Positions 3 through 19,379 of a stretch of DNA of 64,000 bases are shown here, piece by piece; position 1 is the stretch's first letter; each line of letters starts with the position of its first letter. The stretch lies in contig JABJBF010000023.1 of NCBI GenBank assembly GCA_018665965.1, positions 1 to 64,000 on the forward strand. The letters are read 5' to 3'. Origin of the DNA: Candidatus Falkowbacteria bacterium. GTDB lineage: Bacteria; Patescibacteriota; Patescibacteriia; UBA11705; JABHMO01. The position numbers and the translations under genes are program-made. The notes under the pieces are model-generated. The model was not told the DNA's origin, did no database searches, and saw only the letters and a list, made by a program, of their open reading frames with translations.

Positions 3-986
3 TTTGATAAATTAATGTCTGAGTTGGAAGTGCTTTCAGGTGGCTTAGGCTTTGCTGAACTTAAAGTAAAAGCTGAAGCTGGTGATAAAGAAGCGCTTCA
101 AGTGATGCGCGATTATATTGCGAAGAAAGAACAAATTGTGGAGTTTATAGAAACTAAGGAAATGATAGAAGTGGTCGTGCCAGAACGTACCAAGCGTGGT
201 TCTTTGCTCCCCAAAAGTCCGGATAATCCGCATAAAGATGAAGAGCCAGATCAAGATTATTTAATGCCCGAAGTGGAGCTAACATCACCGGAAAAAGCAG
301 TAGAAGCGCTGAAACAAATGTTTCCTGGATTAAACACAGAAAAGTGGTCAGAGGCATTAGAAAAAGGAGTTGCCCCAGCAATAAAAGCCTGCCAAGAGTT
401 GGGAATAGATCCAGAAAGACTGGTTGTTCATCCTTGGATAAAGCGAGAAGCCTTGTCAAGACTTGGTAATACAAACACAACGCACCACGGAGCATTGATT
501 GAAGAAGTAGTCCTTCCTAAACTTGAAGAATTGTATAAACCCAAAGGAATAAAATTTAAGAATTATATAGAAGGTGCGATGTCAGATGATAACCATCTGC
601 AAATGGAGACGGAATTTGCAAAATGGCTAACAGATAGAGAACAAGAAGTAGACGGTGATATATGCTTCAGTGCTCAGATCTTAGATTTACAGCAGGGATT
701 TAGTCCAGACGCAACAAAACATGAATTATCAAAAAAGTCTAACCTTATGGGGTCAAGTTGTTATCTAACTATGCAAATGCTGTTAACGCAAATACAATTG
801 CAAACAAAATGGGAAGAATTGCATTGGTGGATGTCAGCAGATAAGTATGATTTTGAAGGAGAAGCTCGGTTCCCGTCTGCCTTGTATTGCGGTGTGCTTG
901 GAGTCGGTTTCGAGTTTGTCAGCGCTCGCGCGGATAGCGCTTATACGCGGTGCGGTTCGCTCGTCCTGCCGTTCGAAGTGCTTTAG
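3..986 (+). CDS. Paralog-family protein (5'-truncated by window edge); conserved N-terminal domain '...FDKLMSELEVLSGGLGFAELKVKAEAGDKEALQVMRDYIAKKEQIVEFIETKEM' plus a unique C-terminal domain
   Basis: Reading frame is open from nt 3 (FDKLMSELEV...). The N-terminal ~60 aa are near-identical to the N-termini of the ORFs at 1092, 1902, 4191, 61001, 62124 and 62877. The C-terminal ~250 aa are unrelated to the other members. Confidence 0.6.
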   Translation, partial: FDKLMSELEVLSGGLGFAELKVKAEAGDKEALQVMRDYIAKKEQIVEFIETKEMIEVVVPERTKRGSLLPKSPDNPHKDEEPDQDYLMPEVELTSPEKAVEALKQMFPGLNTEKWSEALEKGVAPAIKACQELGIDPERLVVHPWIKREALSRLGNTNTTHHGALIEEVVLPKLEELYKPKGIKFKNYIEGAMSDDNHLQMETEFAKWLTDREQEVDGDICFSAQILDLQQGFSPDATKHELSKKSNLMGSSCYLTMQMLLTQIQLQTKWEELHWWMSADKYDFEGEARFPSALYCGVLGVGFEFVSARADSAYTRCGSLVLPFEVL

Positions 987-1091
987 TCATGAAGTACATG
1001 CGAAGCATGACTTGCGTATCACTTATCACGTATCCAATAACCAATATCCAATACCAAATAACCAATATTTAATAACCAATAAATAATCATC

Positions 1092-1898
1092 ATGAAAAGT
1101 TTAGAACAAATACAAGAACGCTCACTCCACGCTAACTTCACCGAAGTTCAGCAACAACATTTTGATAAATTAATGTCTGAATTAGAAATAATCTCAGGTG
1201 GTTTAGGTTTTGCTGAGCTTAAAGCAAAGGCTGAAGCGGGAAGTAAAGAAGCACTTCAGGTGATGCGAGATTACATTACCAAAAAAGAGGAGATTGTGGA
1301 GTTTATTGAGACTAAAGAAATGTTGAAGGAAAATGAATTTGGAGTAAGGGAGATACGGGAAAATGATAAGGTTTTTCTAGTAAATTTAAATCCAATAAAT
1401 GGTGGGTATTTTGTCAACTATGCTGTATCTAGTAAGGACACTATAGGGCCATTAACTGTTGATAAGGTAGAGAAAGTAGAGGGGCAGTTGGAACCTAAGC
1501 TGTCTGTGAGAAGAGGTACTAGGACCAAGGATGTTAATCCAATAGATCCAGTTTTTGTAGAAGGGTATTATGTGGCGATAAAGAACACAGAAGAGATAAC
1601 TAGAACTTCCAGTGGTGAGGAATACGTAATTTATTCCTTGGATACAAATAGATTTGGTAGTGTCGAGATGGGAAAAAAATATAAGATGAAGAAAAAAAAT
1701 AATTTAAAGTTTCAAAGTGGGCGGGTTTTTGAACCAAAAAACTTTTTTGTTTCTTGGGCTAAAAGTTTGGAAGAGGAGCAGTATCATCCGACCAATAATG
1801 ATGATAGGTGTATTTGGGTTACTTTAGATGCTGCTTTTGGCGGATCTAATTCTTTTCTTTTAGAGGATTTTGTTAAAAATTTTGAATTAGTAGAATAA
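1092..1898 (+). CDS. Paralog-family protein (conserved ~85-aa N-terminal domain with LMSELEIISGG motif; unique C-terminal domain)
   Basis: N-terminus 'MKSLEQIQERSLHANFTEVQQQHFDKLMSELEIISGGLGFAELKAKAEAGSKEALQVMRDYITKKEEIVEFIETKEM' is shared with 6 other ORFs in the window. Good spacing to the upstream gene. C-terminal part is unique. Confidence 0.65.
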   Translation: MKSLEQIQERSLHANFTEVQQQHFDKLMSELEIISGGLGFAELKAKAEAGSKEALQVMRDYITKKEEIVEFIETKEMLKENEFGVREIRENDKVFLVNLNPINGGYFVNYAVSSKDTIGPLTVDKVEKVEGQLEPKLSVRRGTRTKDVNPIDPVFVEGYYVAIKNTEEITRTSSGEEYVIYSLDTNRFGSVEMGKKYKMKKKNNLKFQSGRVFEPKNFFVSWAKSLEEEQYHPTNNDDRCIWVTLDAAFGGSNSFLLEDFVKNFELVE

Positions 1899-1901
1899 AA
1901 T

Positions 1902-2687
1902 ATGATCAACCCCGAGCAACAATTACAAGAAAATGCACTCCAAGCTAACTTCACCGAAGTTCAGCAACAACATTTTGATAAATTAATGTCCGAGTTGGAA
2001 GTGATTTCAGGTGGTTTGGGTTTTGCTGAACTTAAAGAGAAGGCTGAAACTGGTGACAAAGAAGCCCTTCACGTGATGCGTGATTACATTACCAAAAAAG
2101 AGGAGATAGTTGAGTTTATTGAAACTAAGGAGATGTCGGAAGAACCGAGCGATCCTGATTTTGAAAAAATGCTGGAAGCTCATGAAGAAATTAAACCAGG
2201 AGATGTTTACATTGATACAAGTTCAGGCGAAAGATTTGAGGTTATTGAGGTGTTCGATGGTTCAGATAACGAGGTGTCATCAGTAAATAGAAATAATCGT
2301 GATGGTGTAATAAAAATAACAATACAAGGCAGAAGCAGTTCTAATCCTGTGTATTGTGAAATACCTGACAACGATAGTACTATGGATCTTGTTATCGGAC
2401 TTAGTGAACCTTGTATGGAGTTTTCAGTTTCTGCAAAGCCCAAAAATCGTCATGATGTTTTAGATTTACGTACTTTCGGTGGTTTCTCAGTTGGGGAAGA
2501 GTTTCAAAATAGAAGTGTGGAAGCCACTAAATCAAAAATTAAATATTTTGTTTGGGATAAAGAAGAGAAAAAGACCCGAGTGGTTTTTGAAATGATTCAC
2601 ACTCCAGTAGTTGGTAAAGAGACAAAAGATATTTCGATTTTTGACTTAGGTTTATTCGCAGGACTTTATACTAAAATTGAAAAATAA
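1902..2687 (+). CDS. Paralog-family protein (conserved N-terminal domain; unique C-terminal domain)
   Basis: N-terminus 'QANFTEVQQQHFDKLMSELEVISGGLGFAELKEKAETGDKEALHVMRDYITKKEEIVEFIETKEM'. Lies 4 nt after the previous paralog (tandem). Confidence 0.65.
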   Translation: MINPEQQLQENALQANFTEVQQQHFDKLMSELEVISGGLGFAELKEKAETGDKEALHVMRDYITKKEEIVEFIETKEMSEEPSDPDFEKMLEAHEEIKPGDVYIDTSSGERFEVIEVFDGSDNEVSSVNRNNRDGVIKITIQGRSSSNPVYCEIPDNDSTMDLVIGLSEPCMEFSVSAKPKNRHDVLDLRTFGGFSVGEEFQNRSVEATKSKIKYFVWDKEEKKTRVVFEMIHTPVVGKETKDISIFDLGLFAGLYTKIEK

Positions 2688-2758
2688 ATATGATTAGTGC
2701 ATTAAGTAAATATTTTTACCATTTTTAATTAAATTCTAAAATAAATCCGTAAATTCAT

Positions 2759-4024
2759 ATGCAATCCGTACTCCGTATCTTAGAAAAATTATTAGCCAAG
2801 CTAGCGAAAGCTATCATTAATAAATATCAACCAAAAATTGTTGGTATTACCGGTTCAATGGGCAAAACTTCTGCCAAAGAAGCGGTTTATGCTGTTTTGA
2901 ATGGTAAATTTAATGTTCGCAAAAATATAAAAAACTATAATAATGAGATCGGAGTGCCTTTGACTATTATTGGTGTGGAAACTGGTGGTAGGTCGCCGAT
3001 TAAATGGGGCTTGGTATTTCTGCGGGCTGTAAAACTAATTTTCACCAGACAAAAAGATTATCCTGAAGTTTTGGTTTTGGAAATGGGAGCGGATAAACCT
3101 GGTGATATTGGTTATTTAGTAAATCTATTTCCTTGTGATATTGGGGTAGTTACCAAGATTGGGCCTGCTCACATGGAAGCTTTTAAGACTGTAGAAAAAA
3201 TTACTAGAGAAAAACAAAAAATGGTAACTCATTTAGATAAAGACAAGATTGCTGTTTTGAATTGTGATGATGAATTAGTTCGTGCTATGCATAAAAAAGT
3301 AAAAGCTAAAGTAATTTTCTTTGGTTATAGTGAAGAAGCTAATATCCGTTCAGTTGATTTGCATAATCAGGGTGACGGTATGGATTTAACGGGAATCAAA
3401 TTCAAAATCGCTTATGGTGGAAGCACCGTTCCAGTGGCTTTGCCTGGTGTGGTTGGCGCTCACCAAATTAATTCAGCCTTAAGTGCTGCCGCTGTTGGCA
3501 TTGCCCTCGGAATGAACTTGATCGAAGTTTCTGAAGGACTAAAAAATTACAAAGCACCCAAAGGCAGAATGAGCTTGGTTCAGGGTAAACAGACCTTAAT
3601 TATAGATGATACTTATAATTCATCACCACGCGCTGCTAGCGCGGCGCTGGACGCTCTACAGAAGTTGCAGATTGAGCAGGTTGAGCGAAAAATAGCGGTT
3701 TTAGGTGATATGTTGGAGTTGGGTGATTTTTCTGAACAAGCACACCTTGAACTTGGACAAAAAGCAGCTGAAAGCGAGGTTGATCTATTGGTTTGTATTG
3801 GTCCTAGCCGTGAGTTGATAGCCAAGGGTGCTGAAAAGGCAGGATTGAGCTTAGAAAAAATTATGCAAATTCCGGATTCCAACTTGGCCGCTGACAAGAT
3901 GATTGATATTATTAAAGAGAATGATTTGGTTCTTGTAAAAGGTTCTCGTGGTATGCGTATGGAATTGATTGTTAAAGCATTGATGAAAGAGCCAGAGCTC
4001 GCTGAACAATTATTGGTGAAATAG
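2759..4024 (+). CDS. murF: UDP-N-acetylmuramoyl-tripeptide--D-alanyl-D-alanine ligase (Mur ligase family, MurF-like)
   Basis: Mur ligase P-loop 'GITGSMGKTSAKEA'. 'DDTYNSSP' matches the MurF 'DxYNANP' region. Length 421 aa. Confidence 0.7.
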   Translation: MQSVLRILEKLLAKLAKAIINKYQPKIVGITGSMGKTSAKEAVYAVLNGKFNVRKNIKNYNNEIGVPLTIIGVETGGRSPIKWGLVFLRAVKLIFTRQKDYPEVLVLEMGADKPGDIGYLVNLFPCDIGVVTKIGPAHMEAFKTVEKITREKQKMVTHLDKDKIAVLNCDDELVRAMHKKVKAKVIFFGYSEEANIRSVDLHNQGDGMDLTGIKFKIAYGGSTVPVALPGVVGAHQINSALSAAAVGIALGMNLIEVSEGLKNYKAPKGRMSLVQGKQTLIIDDTYNSSPRAASAALDALQKLQIEQVERKIAVLGDMLELGDFSEQAHLELGQKAAESEVDLLVCIGPSRELIAKGAEKAGLSLEKIMQIPDSNLAADKMIDIIKENDLVLVKGSRGMRMELIVKALMKEPELAEQLLVK

Positions 4025-4065
4025 ATTATTAGGTCTAATTACGTCTGATAATTTAAAAGCGTTGA

Positions 4066-4150
4066 GATTCCGGATCAAGCCCGGAATGACGATCTAGGGT
4101 GGGTCGGCGCAGCACAACTACAAACGTCACTCCGGACTTGATCCGGAGTC
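4066..4150. repeat. Imperfect ~25-bp inverted repeat (gattccggatcaagcccggaatgac ... gtcactccggacttgatccggagtc) flanking a GC-rich spacer
   Basis: Each arm is itself a hairpin (ttccgg-N-ccggaa and ctccgga-N-tccggag). The two arms are near reverse complements of each other. Lies between murF and the paralog at 4191. Confidence 0.5.
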
Positions 4151-4190
4151 TGGTGATAAATACTATTAATAGTTTGTCGTTTATTGCATT

Positions 4191-5324
4191 ATGTTAAACT
4201 TAGAACAATTAACTGAAAAATCTCTCCAAGCTAACTTCACTGAAGTTCAGCAACGTCATTTTGATAGATTAATGTCTGAGTTGGAAGTGATCTCAGGTGG
4301 TTTAGGTTTTGCTGAGCTCAAAGCGAAAGCTGAGGCCGGAAGTAAGGAGGCGCTTCAGGTGATGCGCGATTATATCGTTAAGAAAGAACAGATTGTGGAG
4401 TTTTTGGAAATCAAAAAAATTCCTAATGAAACAAAGTCAGCAGAAGAATTGTGCATGGAATTTAGAGGTGAGCCAGTTAAGGTTGCCCACCAGCGTCTAC
4501 ATGCATTAATGGAGACAAGTGCTTATATGAAAGGTCATCATATGTTTCGTCAAGGAATAGATTCTGAGGTTGTTTCTCGGGGTTATTCTTCTAAAGAGCA
4601 AATGTTAGGAAAAATAGTAGCTCATATGGCAGGAGATGGAATTTTGGCTGATTCCCTAACCAATGACATACAAGGCACGTTCTATGACCGAAGTATGCGT
4701 TTATTTAAGGCCAATGATAGATTTACAGGATTACAGACTTTTGATGCTAATACACAATTCTTGTCTGTGGTTGCTTTTATGCTAGAGGGCAAAACCCCTG
4801 CTTTTGAATTGGCCAAGTTTAGTGATCGTCTAAAAGACTCTGAATTATATAATAATGATAAGAACGTGTGGAACCGAAGAATAAGTCCGGACGGAGTACT
4901 TGATGGGCAACTGTACGCTGATGATTATTTGATAGAAATTTTAGCAAACTATTTTTTGGGAAAAACAGAGGAAGTTGAAAAATTATATAAAGAAATGGCC
5001 GAAAGACAGGGTGGAGATTTTTGGGGGGATGGGATTGTGCTGGAATCTCCAGAGGCTGATATTTCAATAAATGAACGTAGTAAAGATCTATTACTGGCAA
5101 TTATAACCCAGGCTTTGGTGGCTGACCCGCAAAAAGCTTACGCCCGATGGCTCAAAGGCAAAGAATTAGATTTGTATGATAAGGATAAAAAATTATGGTA
5201 TGAACGTAAAAATCATAGAGAAGCAGGAAAAATTTATCAGAACCATACAGTTGAAAATGAATTATTAGATATTATGGCGGAAGCGATTTTCATTAAACTT
5301 GGCTTGCATGATGATATTGAATAG
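4191..5324 (+). CDS. Paralog-family protein (conserved N-terminal domain; C-terminal domain of the subfamily shared with the 61001 and 62877 paralogs)
   Basis: N-terminus 'MLNLEQLTEKSLQANFTEVQQRHFDRLMSELEVISGGLGFAELKAKAEAGSKEALQVMRDYIVKKEQIVEFLE'. C-terminal motifs '...ANYFLGKTEEVEKLYKEM...' and '...ELLDIMAEAIFIKLG' recur in the 61001 and 62877 proteins. Confidence 0.65.
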   Translation: MLNLEQLTEKSLQANFTEVQQRHFDRLMSELEVISGGLGFAELKAKAEAGSKEALQVMRDYIVKKEQIVEFLEIKKIPNETKSAEELCMEFRGEPVKVAHQRLHALMETSAYMKGHHMFRQGIDSEVVSRGYSSKEQMLGKIVAHMAGDGILADSLTNDIQGTFYDRSMRLFKANDRFTGLQTFDANTQFLSVVAFMLEGKTPAFELAKFSDRLKDSELYNNDKNVWNRRISPDGVLDGQLYADDYLIEILANYFLGKTEEVEKLYKEMAERQGGDFWGDGIVLESPEADISINERSKDLLLAIITQALVADPQKAYARWLKGKELDLYDKDKKLWYERKNHREAGKIYQNHTVENELLDIMAEAIFIKLGLHDDIE

Positions 5325-5391
5325 ATTCACGTATCGAGTATCTTGGAATGTGAAGCAATATAGCAATTTAACAGTATAACAATATAATTTC

Positions 5392-5823
5392 ATGTCAAAA
5401 ACAAGTGTTACAATTTTAGTGATTGTGTGTTTAATTATTTTTTGTGTAATTACCATGTTTCCTGGTTGGTTTCCAATACGACCGTTAGAAGGAGTGTTTA
5501 CCAAGGTTTGCGATGATGTTTTGAAAGGTGAATTTACCAAATTTGATGAAGACGTGTACGTTGGAAGTCTTGGCGTCCCAACGCGGAAAGACTATGTTAT
5601 TTGTGGCAGAGATCCGGCGGTTGACGCTAATGAAGTTTGCTATATTGCACCGATGGAAGAAAGTATAGTTTATGATGGTAATCCTATGGGTTCAGAAATG
5701 GCTGATGAATGTTATCATTGTCAGTACGGTTGGGAATTAGTGAAGCATGGAAAAAAGGTTTTAGGTAAAGTTTGTAAACCGTACAAAAGTATTTGGAGGT
5801 GGAATTATAAGAGCCCTTTTTAG
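5392..5823 (+). CDS. Small Cys-rich protein with N-terminal transmembrane/signal anchor
   Basis: Hydrophobic N-terminus 'VTILVIVCLIIFCVITMF'; 8 Cys in the remainder; no recognisable family. Confidence 0.45.
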   Translation: MSKTSVTILVIVCLIIFCVITMFPGWFPIRPLEGVFTKVCDDVLKGEFTKFDEDVYVGSLGVPTRKDYVICGRDPAVDANEVCYIAPMEESIVYDGNPMGSEMADECYHCQYGWELVKHGKKVLGKVCKPYKSIWRWNYKSPF

Positions 5824-5890
5824 TTAATGATTAATTATCAAGCACCAAATATCAAATAATTTATAAAATTCAATTTTTAAATTATAAATC

Positions 5891-5918
5891 AAAAAAACAG
5901 GATAAATCCTGTTTTTTT
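5891..5918 (+). terminator. Rho-independent terminator (aacagga-taaa-tcctgtt + T-run)
   Basis: Perfect 7-bp stem followed by TTTTTTT, located downstream of the 5392 ORF. Confidence 0.6.
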
Positions 5919-5976
5919 GTTCCACCAGTCTTAGCAAAATCTTTATGGCTGCGCCAGTCGAAGCTTTAGCGAAGAC

Positions 5977-5994
5977 TGGTGACCCCACGGAGAA
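5977..5994. repeat. 18-nt direct copy of the tRNA-Glu 3' end (tggtgaccccacggagaa)
   Basis: Identical to 6160-6177, the 3' acceptor/T-arm end of the minus-strand tRNA. Looks like an att-like footprint. Confidence 0.6.
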
Positions 5995-6159
5995 ATCTCA
6001 CACGCCACTTCGTGTGCTCTTGGAAGGGTTTCCGCCCCTCCATCTCCCCCCCCCCAGAAAGTAAGGGAATCCTTCCCTTACCATCCCTGGTTCGATTCTC
6101 CTAATTACAAAATAATTATTTGACAATCAAAAAACGATTATCCTTCGATATTCGTTTTT

Positions 6160-6234
6160 TGGTGACCCCACGGAGAATCGAACTCCGGTTACATGGATGA
6201 GAACCATGCGTCCTAACCACTAGACGATGGGGCC
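6160..6234 (-). tRNA. tRNA-Glu (anticodon CUC)
   Basis: Reverse complement folds into a canonical cloverleaf: acceptor GGCCCCA/TGGGGTC, D-arm GTCT-AGTGGTTA-GGAC, anticodon stem CATGG/CCATG with loop TTCTCAT, T-arm CGGAG-TTCGATT-CTCCG, encoded CCA. Confidence 0.8.
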
Positions 6235-6243
6235 ATAATTATA

Positions 6244-6492
6244 TTATAATTTCCGAAAAAATATTTTTTTTATCTTTTTTCTTCCTGCACAGGATTTCCA
6301 GTATTTTTCTCTTTTGATAGCAGCTTTTAAAGTATCTACTTCTTCAAGAATGTGAGCCTCAAAGGTATCAAAGTTTTTTGTTGATTTTACTTTGCCATTC
6401 TTATGCTCCTGCATTCTTTGTTCAAAATTGTTAGTTTGGCCAGTGTATGTTTTTGTGCGCCATTGATTTATTAAAAAGTATATTTTGTGCAT
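6244..6492 (-). CDS. Small GIY-YIG nuclease-domain protein (UPF0213/Slx1-like)
   Basis: 'IYFLINQWRTKTYTGQTNNFEQRMQEHKNG' matches the GIY-YIG core (GIY...YIG...R..EH..G). Start is taken at the internal Met; the longer ORF-track start would run through the tRNA-derived repeat. Confidence 0.6.
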   Translation of the reverse strand: MHKIYFLINQWRTKTYTGQTNNFEQRMQEHKNGKVKSTKNFDTFEAHILEEVDTLKAAIKREKYWKSCAGRKKIKKIFFRKL

Positions 6493-6568
6493 AGAATTGA
6501 GCTTAATAGTGTTGTCAATATATATGCGTCCCCGACTCGCGTCGATGAGCACCGCGAGTCGAGGCGGG

Positions 6569-6593
6569 CTAACCACTAGACGATGGGGCCATA
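6569..6593. repeat. 25-nt direct copy of the tRNA-Glu 5' end plus 3 flanking nt (ctaaccactagacgatggggccata)
   Basis: Identical to 6213-6237. Together with the intact tRNA it brackets the GIY-YIG gene. Confidence 0.7.
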
Positions 6594-6813
6594 AGGCTTG
6601 TTGTATTATAAATCAGTTTTTTGCAATTAGCAAGAATCAAATAGGCTATAGTTTTTGTTCGTATTATATATTTTAATTCATGAATCAAAAATGTTGGCTA
6701 AGTTTAGTTAATTTTACCCATAATTCTTAATTCATACTTCATAATCCATGTTTCACACCTTGACAATTATAAATATATATTATAAGTTTAATTGTTATAT
6801 AGTTAATTGAAAA

Positions 6814-7728
6814 TTGGAGAAAAAAATGGATAAGCTACTTGAGGTTCGATTTAGCCGAACTACGGAAAATGAAATTAAAGGAAAAATATTTCATGATCCT
6901 AGGCCAGTTGAGGAAGAAATAACCTTATCGCTTGGTGAGAACGATGTTGGCGAGGATATGACGGAGGCGATGGCCAGTGTTGATGGATTTAAGCAAAAGG
7001 TTCCTCGTCTGGCAAAAATTGTTTTGATCAATGGCTTCAACAAAGATCGAGTGAACAATTGGGAAACGCCATTGCCACAAGATGGTGAATGGTGGTTGTG
7101 TCAGGAGATTCGTGACACTCGAGCAGGTGATGCTAATAAAGGCGCAATTATTGTTCGACTATGGCAAAATCTGACAGCTGAGAAATTGGCGGAGATCAAT
7201 AAAGAAAAACGGTTCTTGAATCCGATAATTGATTATATTCAAGAAGCTGAAAAATTTGGTGGTAGCGCTAAGACGGATAGTGAAATCTACGAAATGGCTT
7301 GTGAACTTCGTTCATATACTGAGTATATGGTTGACCATCTAGGAGTGGATGTCGCGATAGGAACACTCAGACAGGCTCGCAAGTCGTCTTCTTTAGTTGG
7401 TATGCATAGTGAGATAAGTAAAGTGAATGTCAATCTTCTTGATCATTATGTCTGGACAAGTTTGCAGCAGTTCGATATTGTTGAGACCGTTCGTCGGTTG
7501 TGTTTGGAGGCTATGATTGTATGGCTTGGCAAGATTAAAAAGGGTGAAGTTCAAGTAAGGAAAAATTTCTTCATGACTCGAGTCCAATATTTTAAATGTC
7601 CTCGTTGTCCTACAAACGTAAAGGTCTCGGATAATGCTTGGCAAAATTTTCAAGCTCAGAAAACTGTACTGTTAAAGTGTCCGATTTGCAGTACTGAGGG
7701 TCGAGCTTTACCAATGCTTAAAACATAA
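6814..7728 (+). CDS. Hypothetical protein with C-terminal double CxxC zinc ribbon
   Basis: 'CPRCPTNVKV...CPICSTEG' at the C-terminus. The internal Met at 6826 has the better SD (ggaga). GC visibly higher than the surrounding genome. Confidence 0.5.
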   Translation: MEKKMDKLLEVRFSRTTENEIKGKIFHDPRPVEEEITLSLGENDVGEDMTEAMASVDGFKQKVPRLAKIVLINGFNKDRVNNWETPLPQDGEWWLCQEIRDTRAGDANKGAIIVRLWQNLTAEKLAEINKEKRFLNPIIDYIQEAEKFGGSAKTDSEIYEMACELRSYTEYMVDHLGVDVAIGTLRQARKSSSLVGMHSEISKVNVNLLDHYVWTSLQQFDIVETVRRLCLEAMIVWLGKIKKGEVQVRKNFFMTRVQYFKCPRCPTNVKVSDNAWQNFQAQKTVLLKCPICSTEGRALPMLKT

Positions 7729-7835
7729 AGGGAAGTATAAACTCATGCTTCCTTTTTTTATTTTAAAAAGTTTTGATTTTCTGCTAAACTGAAGGGGTAG
7801 TTATTTGACAATTATAATACTATGAGGGGGACGGT

Positions 7836-16493: not shown

Positions 16494-16568
16494 ACCTACA
16501 TCCCTTTAACTCCAGAATTAATTATTAAGATTAATCTTTAAACTTGGTTAGTCTTTGGCAGTGGAGCC

Positions 16569-16618
16569 TTATTGCCGTGTCTAGCTTTGTTTAGCCTTAT
16601 TATTTGTATGAATACTGA
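16569..16618 (+). repeat. ~45-bp intergenic repeat, copy 2 (ttgccgtgtctagctttgtttagccttattatttgtATG)
   Basis: See copy 1. Confidence 0.55.
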
Positions 16619-16732
16619 AGATATCAAGAAATCAATTTTAAAATTTCTAAAGAGATTGTCGGAATAAAAAAATACTACCTGATTTTCCTTTTAAAACTTG
16701 GTGAAGTTTATCGGGTAGTTTAGAATGATGAT

Positions 16733-16981
16733 ATGTTAGAACAAATCAATCAACAAATCGAAGTTTTAGTTGCTTTTATGCGGGATCGGGTGATGCCGCT
16801 TTCTTTTTCTTGGAATAATAAAAAACATTCAATAAATAAAGTGAATTTGGTTAATAGCGAAAGAATCGGCCGGGACAAGGTTTATTATTATTCAGTAAGT
16901 TCGAACGGGAATTATTTCAAATTGTGTTTCAATACAGAAAGTAATAAATGGTTATTATCAGAAGCATACTATGATAATTGA
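16733..16981 (+). CDS. Small hypothetical protein immediately upstream of and overlapping dinB (possibly YolD-like polymerase accessory protein)
   Basis: 82-aa ORF overlapping the dinB start by 11 nt. This position is typical of small accessory proteins of Y-family polymerases; no motif confirmed. Confidence 0.35.
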   Translation: MLEQINQQIEVLVAFMRDRVMPLSFSWNNKKHSINKVNLVNSERIGRDKVYYYSVSSNGNYFKLCFNTESNKWLLSEAYYDN

Positions 16982-18188
16982 GAGAACAATTTTTCACATA
17001 GACATGGATTCGTTTTTTGCCACCATTGAACAGCAAGCCCGGCCATACCTTCGCGGTAGGCCGATCGTTGTTTCTGGCAAGGAAGGTTCGCGGAGCGTAA
17101 TTGTAGCTTCATCTGTGGAGGCTAAGAAGTTGGGGATCAAAACGGGCATGTTGCCATTTGAGGCTAAGGCTCTTTGTAAGGCTCTTATTTTTGTAGAACC
17201 AGATGGATTAAAGTACGAAAACGCTTCTAGGAAAATGATAGAAATATTCAAGCAGTATACTGAAAAAGTAGAGGTTTTTAGTATTGATGAAGCCTTTTTG
17301 GATATGACTGGTTATTGCAAAGATGCTGAACAAATAAGTTGTTCAGCTAGGAGAATCAAAGCCCAAATTAAGGCCGAGTTAGGGGAGTGGGTTACTTGTT
17401 CAGTAGGTGTTGCGAAAAATAAATTATTGGCTAAATTAGCCTCAGGATTAGACAAGCCAGATGGTTTGTTTTTTATTAATGATCAAAATAAAGAGGCAGT
17501 TTTGAGCAATATTGAATTAGATGATTTTTGTGGTATTGGTAGGCGGATAAAAAAGCATTTGAGTGATTTAGGTGTTGATACTGTTAGCAAGCTTAGAGAA
17601 TATCCAAAGGCGGAACTATGCAGGATTTTCGGTCCTTTTTATGGTGAGAAACTTCAGAACATGTCGTGGGGTGAAGATAACGAGCCAGTCACCTCTTATT
17701 TACAACAAGCAGAAGCAAAATCTGTTGGCCGGTCATATACTTTAGCTAAGAACACATTTGATAAAACTGAGATACTCACTGTATTACTGCATCTATGTGA
17801 AAAGACCGGCCGTGAACTGCGTCGTAATAATTTGGCTGGTAAGACAATAGTTGTTTATTGGAGGTATGCTGATTTTACTCACGGTGGAGTACGTAAAACT
17901 TTTCCAGGTTATTTGAATGATAGTTTTCGGTTTTATGAACTTGGAAAAAAGAAGATTTCAAATTTCAAATTTCCCAATGCTGTACGTTTACTTGGAATTC
18001 ATGTTAGTAATTTAGTAAAAGATTACCAACAGTTGCCGTTATTCTCAAAAGATCGTCAACAAAAAAAACTTTTACCATATCTTGATGAAATTAATGATCG
18101 CTATGGGGAATTAACTATTAAACCTGCATTTTTATTGAAACTCAATCGCTTGCGTAATAAAGTTGGTGGATTTCGCTTGCAGGATTAG
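16971..18188 (+). CDS. dinB: DNA polymerase IV (Y-family)
   Basis: 'IFHIDMDSFFATIEQ', 'VFSIDEAFLDMTG', 'GVAKNKLLAKLAS' conserved Y-family motifs. Confidence 0.85.
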   Translation: MIIERTIFHIDMDSFFATIEQQARPYLRGRPIVVSGKEGSRSVIVASSVEAKKLGIKTGMLPFEAKALCKALIFVEPDGLKYENASRKMIEIFKQYTEKVEVFSIDEAFLDMTGYCKDAEQISCSARRIKAQIKAELGEWVTCSVGVAKNKLLAKLASGLDKPDGLFFINDQNKEAVLSNIELDDFCGIGRRIKKHLSDLGVDTVSKLREYPKAELCRIFGPFYGEKLQNMSWGEDNEPVTSYLQQAEAKSVGRSYTLAKNTFDKTEILTVLLHLCEKTGRELRRNNLAGKTIVVYWRYADFTHGGVRKTFPGYLNDSFRFYELGKKKISNFKFPNAVRLLGIHVSNLVKDYQQLPLFSKDRQQKKLLPYLDEINDRYGELTIKPAFLLKLNRLRNKVGGFRLQD

Positions 18189-18225
18189 TTGTGTTATAAT
18201 TTAACTATAAAAATAAAGTATTATT

Positions 18226-18312
18226 ATGAAATGTGACAAATGTAAATGCGCTCCTTGCAAGTGTAAATCTAAATGTACCAGCTGTGGTTGTAAGACCTGT
18301 AAGTGTAAATAG
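18226..18312 (+). CDS. Metallothionein-like Cys-rich peptide (28 aa; MKCDKCKCAPCKCKSKCTSCGCKTCKCK), not in ORF track
   Basis: 9 Cys in CxC/CxxC arrays. -10-like 'tataat' upstream. Hairpin terminator downstream at about 18321-18375. Confidence 0.4.
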   Translation: MKCDKCKCAPCKCKSKCTSCGCKTCKCK

Positions 18313-18404
18313 TCATAGTTGAAAGGACGAGCCTACCTGCTGTAAGCAGGTTAATCACAGCTCGTTCTTTTGTTTAGGTGAAAATTTTGTTATAATCCTA
18401 TTAT

Positions 18405-19379
18405 ATGAAAAAGTCTGAATTTGATAAATTTGTAGCAAAATTGCTAGAAAAGGGTTTCGTTTATTCTCCAGTTAAAGATGGAGAAATGGTTTTAGTTAAA
18501 CAAATTTTTAAACCGGGGGATATGGACTGGTCTGGTGACATACCATTGAATTCATTCAAGTCAATTGTTTTGCCAGCTAAACAAGATATGGCGACATATT
18601 CCAAGGACGTAGCTAAAGTTATTAATGAAAAAATAAAGCCTATTTTTATTCTTGGATTAAATATTTTAGATTTACGAGCCTTGGCTTTATTTGAACAGGT
18701 TTTTGCTAAAGATTATTATTTTCAAAAGCGTCGACAATCCTTACATTATATTGGTTTAACTAATGGCATTGAGGATGATTTACGTAAATACAAAGTGTTT
18801 AATAAAAAATATGAAGAAGATGTGTTAGAGCATCTTATTTTTGATGTTTTTGTTGAAAGACAGAAGAGTGGTAATTTGATTTTGTTTTCCGGCTCGGAAA
18901 AAGGTCAACAGCTTCTGGAAAAAAGTAAAATTGAAGACTACGAAAATATTGAATTTGCTGGATTTATACCTGAGCATGGTCCCAATCCTTTGATTGAACA
19001 AAAAAAGCTAGCAATATTGAACAATCCTGACCACCCACTATGGGATAAATTAGCTAAAATTTGTCTTAGTTGCGGGAAGTGCTCAATCCATTGTCCAACC
19101 TGTTTTTGCTTTGACCAGAAGGATAAGGTTGAATTTGATCAAGTCGTGAAAACACGACAATGGACAACCTGTTTTTATCCAAAGTTTTCTGAAATAACGG
19201 GTGGTAATAAAGAATTGGATTCAGTAAAAAAGAAATTATATTTTTGGTATTATCATAAATTTGTACGCATTCCTGATGAGTTCGATTACTATGGTTGTGT
19301 TAGTTGTATGCGTTGTTACAAAACTTGCCCAGTTGAAATTAATATTGCTGAGAATTTGCAAGAATTGAAAAAAGTATGA
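18405..19379 (+). CDS. [NiFe]-hydrogenase group 3b-like iron-sulfur subunit (HydB/beta-like)
   Basis: Two ferredoxin-like Cys motifs 'CGKCSIHCPTCFC' and 'CVSCMRCYKTCP'. Lies in an operon with hydrogenase small and large subunits. Confidence 0.6.
   Translation: MKKSEFDKFVAKLLEKGFVYSPVKDGEMVLVKQIFKPGDMDWSGDIPLNSFKSIVLPAKQDMATYSKDVAKVINEKIKPIFILGLNILDLRALALFEQVFAKDYYFQKRRQSLHYIGLTNGIEDDLRKYKVFNKKYEEDVLEHLIFDVFVERQKSGNLILFSGSEKGQQLLEKSKIEDYENIEFAGFIPEHGPNPLIEQKKLAILNNPDHPLWDKLAKICLSCGKCSIHCPTCFCFDQKDKVEFDQVVKTRQWTTCFYPKFSEITGGNKELDSVKKKLYFWYYHKFVRIPDEFDYYGCVSCMRCYKTCPVEINIAENLQELKKV

Follow-up and report, generated by a model that had tools for sequence, protein, structure and literature searches.

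The stretch analyzed here, hereafter the window, comprises 64,000 nucleotides (nt) of a Candidatus Falkowbacteria bacterium (GenBank assembly GCA_018665965.1, contig JABJBF010000023.1, positions 1 to 64,000). The sole tRNA gene of the window, tRNA-Glu(CTC) as detected by ARAGORN, is accompanied by an open reading frame (ORF) for an 82-aa GIY-YIG protein and by displaced partial copies of both its own ends (Table 1). A previous sequence-only reading of the region had named a tRNA-Glu(CUC) here, and ARAGORN and Rfam agree on it, the Rfam tRNA model giving a score of 60.6 bits. The 18-nt copy of the tRNA 3' end reported in that reading is identical to its source, and the reported 25-nt copy of the 5' end is real as well, being in fact one base longer, split by a GC-rich palindrome and resuming beyond it; when extended to 31 nt, this repeat retains 94% identity. 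The presence of exact 18- and 26-nt repeats inside 1 kb far exceeds chance. The small GIY-YIG gene placed by the same reading between the two copies also withstood analysis: the ORF lies between the 5' copy and the tRNA and matched the Pfam family with an E value of 3e-14. The locus is near-identical across independent assemblies, and the collection searched contains the 82-aa protein in 61 of its indexed blocks.

Since the heptanucleotide GACGCAT found after the palindrome corresponds to tRNA positions 23-29, the displaced 5' copy spans positions 1-29 of the tRNA; the same layout was observed in related loci L008, L009, L010, L023 and L034 (loci of our collection are designated by L numbers). 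An AT-rich spacer of 31 nt separates GACGCAT from the ORF, the stop codon of which lies 9 nt ahead of the intact tRNA-Glu. The promoter scan revealed no promoter-like site between the ORF and the tRNA on the strand of the latter, and placed such a site ahead of the displaced piece. Judging from this arrangement of predicted signals, a transcript covering the fragment, the ORF and the tRNA is probably driven by the upstream promoter.

Table 1. Features of the tRNA-Glu locus, ordered in the direction of the minus strand (positions are those of the window).
Feature	Position	Strand	Basis or remark
Promoter-like TTGCTA-17-TATAAT, 10/12	6605-6633	minus	Consensus match only; precedes the displaced 5' copy by ~12 nt
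Displaced 5' tRNA-Glu copy: 4-nt flank (TTAT) and positions 1-22 (acceptor 5' strand, D arm)	6569-6594	minus	26/26 identical to 6213-6238
GC-rich palindrome CCCGCCTCGACTCGCGGTGCTCATCGACGCGAGTCGGG, 38 nt, within the D arm of the displaced 5' copy	6531-6568	no strand	Folds into a 12-14 bp hairpin
GACGCAT (tRNA positions 23-29), displaced 5' copy resumed beyond the palindrome	6524-6530	minus	Direct reading
82-aa GIY-YIG gene, catalytic domain only	6244-6492	minus	Pfam PF01541
Intact tRNA-Glu(CUC), CCA encoded	6160-6234	minus	ARAGORN, Rfam
AT-rich hairpin followed by a T run, terminator-like, immediately 3' of the tRNA; start of the ORF-less 3' unit	6128-6161	minus	Inverted repeat
GGAGAATCGAAC, T loop and T-stem 3' strand of the same tRNA in reverse complement	6090-6101	minus	
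GC-rich hairpin filler of the 3' unit, 95 nt, with a G10 run	5995-6089	minus	RNA fold z = -2.5
Displaced 3' tRNA-Glu copy (T-loop end, T-stem 3' strand, acceptor 3' strand, CCA)	5977-5994	minus	18/18 identical to 6160-6177
Hairpin CCAGTC-TTCGCTAAAGCTTC-GACTGG, overlapping the CCA of the 3' copy	5954-5979	minus	
Hairpin of 14 perfectly paired bp, T runs on either strand, resembling a bidirectional terminator	5890-5919	no strand	Ends the minus-strand unit and follows the 143-aa gene

In the 82-aa protein, residues Y5, Y16, G18, R26, H30 and E62 are invariant among relatives, with which the alignment to I-TevI is consistent, and so is the motif REKYWKSC.GRKK near the C terminus. The structure model (mean pLDDT 91) found its best structural match in the catalytic domain of I-TevI (TM-score 0.61), the next fold neighbours being the UPF0213 protein BH0048, Slx1 and the N-terminal domain of UvrC. 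It consists of the catalytic domain alone with a basic C-terminal helix REKYWKSCAGRKKIKK, and no DNA-binding domain was recognized either in the sequence of the protein or in the structure model. The family profile matched BH0048 (PDB 1zg2) with an E value of 9e-4, while NCBIfam returned a sub-threshold match to a group I intron endonuclease model (29.6 bits against the cutoff of 56); an identical protein is annotated at NCBI as a GIY-YIG nuclease of Candidatus Falkowbacteria. As modelled, the fold and the catalytic residues appear intact, which counts in favour of a homing cassette, and the protein is predicted to act as a nuclease. The possibility that it belongs to an anti-phage defence system was rejected: no PADLOC family was recognized, and a weak partial domain match alone was obtained (E 5e-4 over 34 residues).

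The locus very probably belongs to a recurrent family of GIY-YIG cassettes nested in tRNA genes. All three database relatives (49-59% identity, on short contigs) possess the same succession of a 5' tRNA-Glu piece with a GC palindrome, the ORF and an intact tRNA-Glu. A pattern-limited search of 185,579 species representatives yielded 7 full-length relatives in Komeilibacteria, Portnoybacteria, 'Parcubacteria' and other metagenome-assembled genomes of Patescibacteria, with the same arrangement except for L011, where the contig ends inside the tRNA, and L015, where the 5' piece is barely recognizable. A metagenome scan contributed 80 further loci. In 64 of the 79 non-redundant loci a tRNA gene lies on the same strand within 120 nt of the ORF (downstream in 55, upstream in 8 and on both sides in 1), the other 15 being mostly cut by contig ends or having a same-strand tRNA a little farther off; an opposite-strand tRNA was found in none of the 79.

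The identity of the ORF is linked to that of the tRNA. ORFs at least 44% identical are located mostly at tRNA-Glu (CTC or TTC) and in a few cases at tRNA-Arg, Ser or Leu; more distant clades occupy the genes of tRNA-Arg, Gln, Asn, Ser, Leu, Phe, Pro, Trp, Met and Gly, and in the neighbour-joining tree the ORFs form clades by tRNA identity (Glu, Arg, Gln, Asn, Ser, Leu, Phe). The family is large: in a profile search against 1.84 billion representative proteins, the number of clusters recovered was 305 with the threshold set at E ≤ 1e-10 and 4530 with E ≤ 1e-3, and the matches listed were all short. Many of the gene calls carry N- or C-terminal extensions that are translated tRNA, e.g., 'AELVDALDSKSS...GSIPA' or '...LSSSG', and hence the association with tRNA genes reaches well past the loci fetched. 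Carriage by a phage or plasmid was considered and rejected: no relatives were detected among viral contigs and plasmids, and the phage collection gave only a 34%-identical partial match, to the phiN3 homing endonuclease. No description of tRNA-nested GIY-YIG cassettes was found in the full-text literature searched, subscription-only papers being outside its scope, and for this reason the family, widespread in the candidate phyla radiation (CPR)/Patescibacteria, is called undescribed provisionally.

Two mirror-image architectures can be distinguished. In type A, with the tRNA downstream, most loci have ahead of the ORF a partial tRNA copy whose alignment starts at tRNA position 1 and mostly ends at positions 19-41, the D arm of the displaced copy bearing one or more insertions of at least 20 nt; a few loci retain a near-complete copy. 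In type B, with the tRNA upstream, the intact tRNA is followed by the ORF and then by a 3' copy that has a palindrome in the T or anticodon loop. As a separate observation, L015 (2740-2935) and L008 (305-530) contain, downstream of a GIY-YIG ORF, a complete tRNA-Glu within the anticodon loop of a second tRNA-Glu, whose halves remain recognizable, with short inverted repeats at both sides of the nested gene.

The 38-nt palindrome occurs once in the window. Palindromes at tRNA-Glu and tRNA-Gln form a single family by sequence, with an asymmetric core that is conserved and bounded by terminal inverted repeats of 9 bp, CCCGCCTCG...CGAGGCGGG. Copies exist in either orientation (22 versus 25), follow at least four different D-arm positions and are at times nested or tandem. 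In 244 kb of related loci 67 copies were counted, of which 55 precede the ORF by no more than 270 nt; downstream tRNA pseudo-copies hold most of the remainder. GC palindromes of other sequence are present at equivalent places in the cassettes of tRNA-Arg, Asn, Pro and Ser. The conservation of the palindrome sequence across ORFs that are just 44-68% identical points to function or to recent spread. Terminal inverted repeats, both orientations and nested or tandem copies resemble the traits of miniature inverted-repeat transposable elements (MITEs) or repetitive extragenic palindromic (REP) sequences; the dispersal over the genome and the target-site duplications typical of such elements were not observed, the junctions of the palindromes showing no duplications. 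Outside the cassette, L019 (7913-7957) and L018 (41-85) contain a GC-rich palindrome of 42-44 nt, GCCCGTCTCG...CGAGGCGG, between AT-rich flanks which are contiguous in the window at ~6733; this independent insertion polymorphism indicates that GC palindromes can insert on their own. The loop TGCTCAT was considered as an anticodon-like loop of an odd tRNA and was discarded in view of the conserved family found in both orientations. Another GC-rich palindrome was noticed in L014 (~3040-3100), between AAAGTTCAAAG direct repeats in an apparent coding region downstream of the cassette.

On the 3' side of the tRNA-Glu lies an ORF-less unit composed of a terminator-like hairpin, an inverted T-arm 12-mer, GC-rich hairpins and the 3' copy. 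Such a unit is also present in L034, L039, L046 (twice), L049 and L054/55, the inverted T-arm motif being located 42-63 nt past the tRNA in L034, L039, L046 (twice), L047, L049 and L054; L047 has the motif with no detectable 3' copy. Hairpins analogous to that at 6128-6161 follow the tRNA in L034, L039, L054 and L047. In L049 the inverted motif mirrors the variant T loop of the same locus (TTCGACT), which means that the motif was copied from the local tRNA; together with its occurrence in seven other loci this ruled out the explanation of 6090-6101 as a relic of an ancestral plus-strand tRNA such as that of L019. Comparable 3' copies were found 89-506 nt downstream of the tRNA in 21 of the 56 relatives with a downstream tRNA, and a simpler form, a 3' copy with a short T-loop hairpin, occurs in L010, L026, L040 and L067. 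In L025, a single tRNA-Glu with a type A ORF upstream is followed by an apparent second GIY-YIG ORF (recognized by eye and unconfirmed by a family search) and then by a decayed 3' copy. Considering the recurrent 3' units, their simpler versions and L025, the 165-nt segment of the window with its 18-nt repeat most plausibly represents a remnant or derivative, devoid of the ORF, of a type B cassette (tRNA, ORF, 3' copy). The hairpins and the C/G run that the sequence-only reading had recorded at 5925-6110 are present, though their description as debris is not supported: they mostly form this structured unit recurring in distant relatives.

A structured RNA was also considered for the 3' unit and rejected: RNAalifold applied to five units showed that the closing stem alone is shared, and Rfam gave no match. 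The hairpin that overlaps the CCA of the 3' copy has an invariant 14-nt loop, TTCGCTAAAGCTTC, and was found right after tRNA 3' ends also in L088 (~1328-1353) and in L085 (minus strand); its stem covaries in very distant lineages (CCAGTC/GACTGG in the window versus CCATGC/GCATGG in L088), so that it may represent a conserved structured element. The run of ten C within the 3' unit (6044-6053, G10 on the minus strand) has an A to C change beside it, at 6056, in L001.

The claim that both ends of this tRNA carry the footprints of insertion is supported, and there are presence/absence differences between loci. L019, a syntenic relative with neighbour proteins 70-87% identical to those of the window, holds in the corresponding intergenic region a plain tRNA-Glu(CTC), with neither an ORF nor tRNA fragments, which shows the cassette to be dispensable at this site. 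Homologues of the 300-aa neighbour provided one informative relative only. L003 (2300-3020, ERZ4200961 NODE_3117), a strain of the species of the window, has two tandem 356-bp units consisting of the displaced fragment, the palindrome and the ORF, whereas L021, of the same single-nucleotide polymorphism haplotype, has one. Arrays are also present in L025 and L066, and L071 has an extra tRNA pseudo-copy upstream of the cassette. The sequence-only reading had also considered, as a finding that would speak against insertion, a conserved tRNA-GIY-YIG arrangement free of polymorphism; the arrangement is indeed conserved across distant lineages, yet it is sporadic and polymorphic.

Recombination within the cassettes is indicated by mosaic loci. 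The tRNA-Arg cassettes L067 and L078 are identical at 120 of 120 positions in the upstream flank, displaced fragment, palindrome and leader, only 82% identical (192/234) across the ORF and again 100% identical downstream, the 89-nt 3' unit being present in L067 and absent from L078. The 5' acceptor strand of the L078 tRNA-Arg (GCCCCGG) pairs with its 3' strand at 5 of 7 positions, whereas that of the displaced fragment (GCCCACG) pairs at 7 of 7; such a chimeric tRNA would be the expected outcome of an incoming cassette recombining within the tRNA. Homology between L053 and L056 begins within 2 nt of the start of the displaced fragment and that between L071 and L072 exactly at it, amounting to 86-93% from this point onward with unrelated flanks upstream. 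Finally, the displaced fragment differs from the self-consistent intact gene in 9 loci, and in 7 of these it stems from another tRNA allele, which simple local duplication does not predict.

Taking these data together, we favour with moderate confidence the interpretation that the locus is a selfish homing-type cassette residing in a tRNA gene, which uses the tRNA-derived flanks as homology arms and preserves a working tRNA. A complete tRNA copy follows the ORF, and the host therefore retains a functional tRNA-Glu(CUC). The cassette would be transcribed from the promoter ahead of the displaced 5' piece, the tRNA being freed from the ORF-tRNA co-transcript. The nuclease would then cut a cassette-free tRNA gene of the same isoacceptor, and repair from the cassette-bearing copy, with the displaced 5' piece as the left arm and the intact tRNA as the right arm, would result in copying the ORF into the target. 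For the palindrome three roles may be envisaged. It may break the direct repeat, so that the ORF would escape loss by recombination between the repeats; a crossover upstream of the palindrome would leave, as the only tRNA copy, one with the palindrome in its D arm. Alternatively, the nuclease may use it as a cis site of structured DNA. Finally, it may be a small hairpin, mobile in its own right and tolerated in dead tRNA copies only.

A number of considerations weigh against this interpretation. Cleavage by the nuclease and its target are predictions, and an 82-aa protein devoid of a DNA-binding domain is an unlikely sequence-specific homing enzyme. The intact tRNA beside the ORF should still be a target for the nuclease, which leaves immunity unexplained. 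The end of the displaced fragment varies among the loci and does not define a fixed insertion point. The related loci were gathered with protein patterns of the Glu clade and hence represent a biased census. The check for an empty site, suggested in the sequence-only reading, succeeded only in part: L019 indeed has a plain tRNA in the same intergenic region, but this tRNA is encoded by the other strand, its surroundings lack homology over ~200-800 bp, and within the replaced segment the tRNA alone is homologous, so that L019 is not a clean empty site. The extra unit of L003 could be either real copy-number variation or an assembler loop. All contigs with the exact 143-aa neighbour carry the cassette, i.e., no presence/absence variation was seen within the population sampled by these contigs, and L041 and L054 resemble vertically inherited orthologous cassettes.

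Among the alternatives, a Campbell-type event fares best, although we consider it unlikely. According to it, a small circle or tandem unit of ~356 bp, comprising the ORF and a tRNA copy, enters a tRNA gene by homologous recombination of the host and produces a tRNA-ORF-tRNA arrangement, one copy of which subsequently decays, the nuclease at most stimulating the process. Near-complete tRNA copies on both sides of the ORF in L033, L052, L070 and L093, the tandem units of L003, L066 and L025 and the upstream pseudo-copy of L071 agree with this scenario, and the variable ends of the displaced copies fit erosion; what it leaves unexplained is the constant nuclease cargo and the tracking of tRNA identity by ORF clades, and no circular junction was observed. 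It overlaps with the homing interpretation and differs from it mainly in the initiating step.

Decidedly unlikely, in our estimate, is the reversal of roles in which mobility would reside primarily in the GC palindromes, with the GIY-YIG protein acting on them as a structure-specific nuclease (like the enzyme that accompanies a REP/MITE family) and the dead tRNA copies serving as their preferred landing pads. The affiliation of the palindromes to one family with inverted termini and their presence in either orientation, at several points of the D arm and as nested or tandem copies suit such an element, as do the independent insertion polymorphism of L019/L018 relative to the window and the presence of Slx1, a structure-specific nuclease, among the nearest folds. 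Still, the palindromes are not dispersed, being represented by one copy in the 64-kb window and, in the related loci, concentrated just upstream of the ORF, they lack target-site duplications, and the cassettes of other tRNAs contain different palindromes.

It is highly improbable that the GIY-YIG protein was domesticated by the host as a tRNA-linked factor for housekeeping or repair, the fragments being by-products of local tandem duplication of the tRNA. The ORF shows no disruption and is conserved, its C-terminal motif being invariant, and the similarity of L041 to L054, higher in the cassette (87%) than in the upstream flank (79%), fits vertical inheritance under selection; set against this are the sporadic distribution, with absence in syntenic L019 and with the 7 full-length relatives recovered by the pattern-limited search of species representatives, the exchange of ORFs, the chimeric tRNAs and the homology breaks at the fragment edge, as well as the foreign tRNA alleles in most of the differing displaced fragments.

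The classical site-specific integration proposed in the sequence-only reading, with the 18- and 26-nt repeats as attL/attR cores left by the integrase-mediated insertion and excision of islands, can be practically dismissed. In its favour, integration classically targets the 3' ends of tRNA genes, short att-flanked remnants devoid of an integrase are known, and the 18-nt copy of the tRNA 3' end, in direct orientation beyond the insert, does resemble an att duplication, though it bounds just 165 nt of hairpins. Against it, no integrase or recombinase was recognized by Pfam among the 15 largest ORFs at positions 15-19379, i.e., within ~13 kb, the inserts measure just 165 and 356 bp (~600 bp bracketed in total), a palindrome splits the 5' repeat, which adjoins the nuclease ORF, the 3' units hold an inverted copy of their own T arm, which is no att feature, and the ORF-centred design recurs in dozens of unrelated contexts at many tRNAs. 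Compared with tRNA-targeting integrative elements (islands, prophages, integrative conjugative elements), the cassette shares the insertion at a tRNA gene, a tRNA end repeated in direct orientation and the preservation of a functional tRNA; it differs in the absence of an integrase among the ORFs scanned, in its size, in having repeats at the 5' as well as the 3' end and in the palindromes that split the repeats.

By analogy, the closest working likeness of the homing-type cassette seems to be the free-standing GIY-YIG homing endonuclease genes, namely the Seg family of T4 and the mobile ORFs of fungal mitochondria. Seg genes are free-standing GIY-YIG genes of T4-like phages, one of which, segB, is located in the tRNA gene cluster, and their products of ~200 or more aa possess DNA-binding domains. 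Common to them and the cassette are an intron-free GIY-YIG gene by or within the presumed target genes, sporadic distribution and exchange of flanks by recombination, whereas the cassette is distinguished by a protein reduced to the 82-aa catalytic domain, a cellular CPR host, the partial duplicate of the target tRNA and the GC palindromes. SegB reportedly promotes the preferential inheritance and the segmental amplification of tRNA regions (PMC13096335). Of the traits of a free-standing homing gene, the cassette displays the fold with its residues and the sporadic occurrence with mosaic flanks, and lacks a separate DNA-binding domain.

GIY-YIG endonucleases of group I introns, represented by I-TevI and including those of introns in the anticodon loop of bacterial tRNAs, comprise the best structural and profile match of the protein, and many displaced fragments end near the anticodon loop, the classical intron position; at variance with an intron, the tRNA of the cassette is uninterrupted, with a complete copy after the ORF, and the protein has neither a linker nor a DNA-binding domain. 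A group I intron at the locus was rejected, as no intron model of Rfam matched positions 5300-7300 at E ≤ 10 and the upstream piece duplicates positions 1-29 of the tRNA, a complete copy of which follows the ORF. The stand-alone GIY-YIG proteins of ~80-100 aa, UPF0213/YhbQ and the Slx1 domain, are similar at the level of the domain only, and no tRNA-nested arrangement of their genes was found in the literature searched.

In the Allomyces atp6 mobile ORF and the Ophiostoma rps3 insertions, an endonuclease ORF reportedly restores the host gene by a copy borne on the element and leaves a displaced piece. Fungal mitochondrial genomes with such ORFs are AT-rich, and mobile GC-rich hairpins often occur alongside. 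Duplications of gene fragments near homing endonuclease ORFs are reported in mitochondrial genome papers. The rebuilding of the host gene by a duplicate, the displaced pseudogene piece, the AT-rich genome and the GC hairpins are shared with the cassette; the mitochondrial ORFs encode full-length endonucleases in organelle protein genes, in contrast to the minimal nuclease in a bacterial tRNA gene with palindromes systematically placed inside the displaced copy. In CPR bacteria, endonuclease-bearing insertions, including GIY-YIG ORFs without introns, were described in rRNA genes (PMC11270868), in a paper where the term 'tRNA' does not occur. These insertions share with the cassette the host organisms and the presence of endonucleases in essential RNA genes, but they interrupt the rRNA gene and are removed or tolerated at the RNA level, whereas the cassette keeps the RNA gene intact by duplication.

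Several features were recorded in the neighbourhood of the locus. The plus strand at 10813-13728 encodes a 971-aa protein similar to the major vault protein (MVP; Pfam MVP_shoulder and Vault_3), here in a CPR bacterium; the GC content of this gene is 46-49% against a background of ~36%, and the same synteny is found in L019. The coincidence of the 5' tRNA copy with the start of a GC-rich MVP island, suggested in the sequence-only reading, is not supported as a connection: L019, although free of the cassette, has the MVP gene in the same syntenic setting. A 377-aa protein encoded at 4191-5324 (plus strand) is matched by ~50 other Falkowbacteria proteins with 70-85% identity over just ~20-27% of its length; this module is unusually conserved, and some of the homologues are fused to WD40 repeats. 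Farther along the plus strand, genes for LexA (15075-15677) and for a translesion polymerase of the DinB/ImpB type (16971-18188) are separated by a 154-aa ORF with no family match.

More tentatively, and with less confidence than the interpretation of the single locus, we propose that such loci represent a previously unrecognized two-part class of tRNA-gene parasites widespread in Patescibacteria. In it, a minimal GIY-YIG nuclease combined with portable tRNA arms would home to cassette-free genes of the same tRNA, a functional tRNA would always be rebuilt, the palindromes would be functional, either as a lock against excision or as a structured site for the nuclease, and the clades of the nuclease would be specialized by tRNA. 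If so, essential tRNA genes of the smallest known bacteria would be routinely colonized by near-minimal autonomous mobile units composed of ~250 bp of coding sequence and borrowed tRNA sequence, and homing elements would be able to invade uninterruptible, non-splicing genes by rebuilding the target. This would bear on the annotation of CPR tRNA genes, with their fragments, hairpin-bearing pseudo-copies and ORF calls running through the tRNA, and on the frequent contig breaks at cassette loci. The family would also provide a natural set of very small nucleases, the clades of which track tRNA genes, making the recognition of a tRNA gene by an 82-aa protein directly testable.

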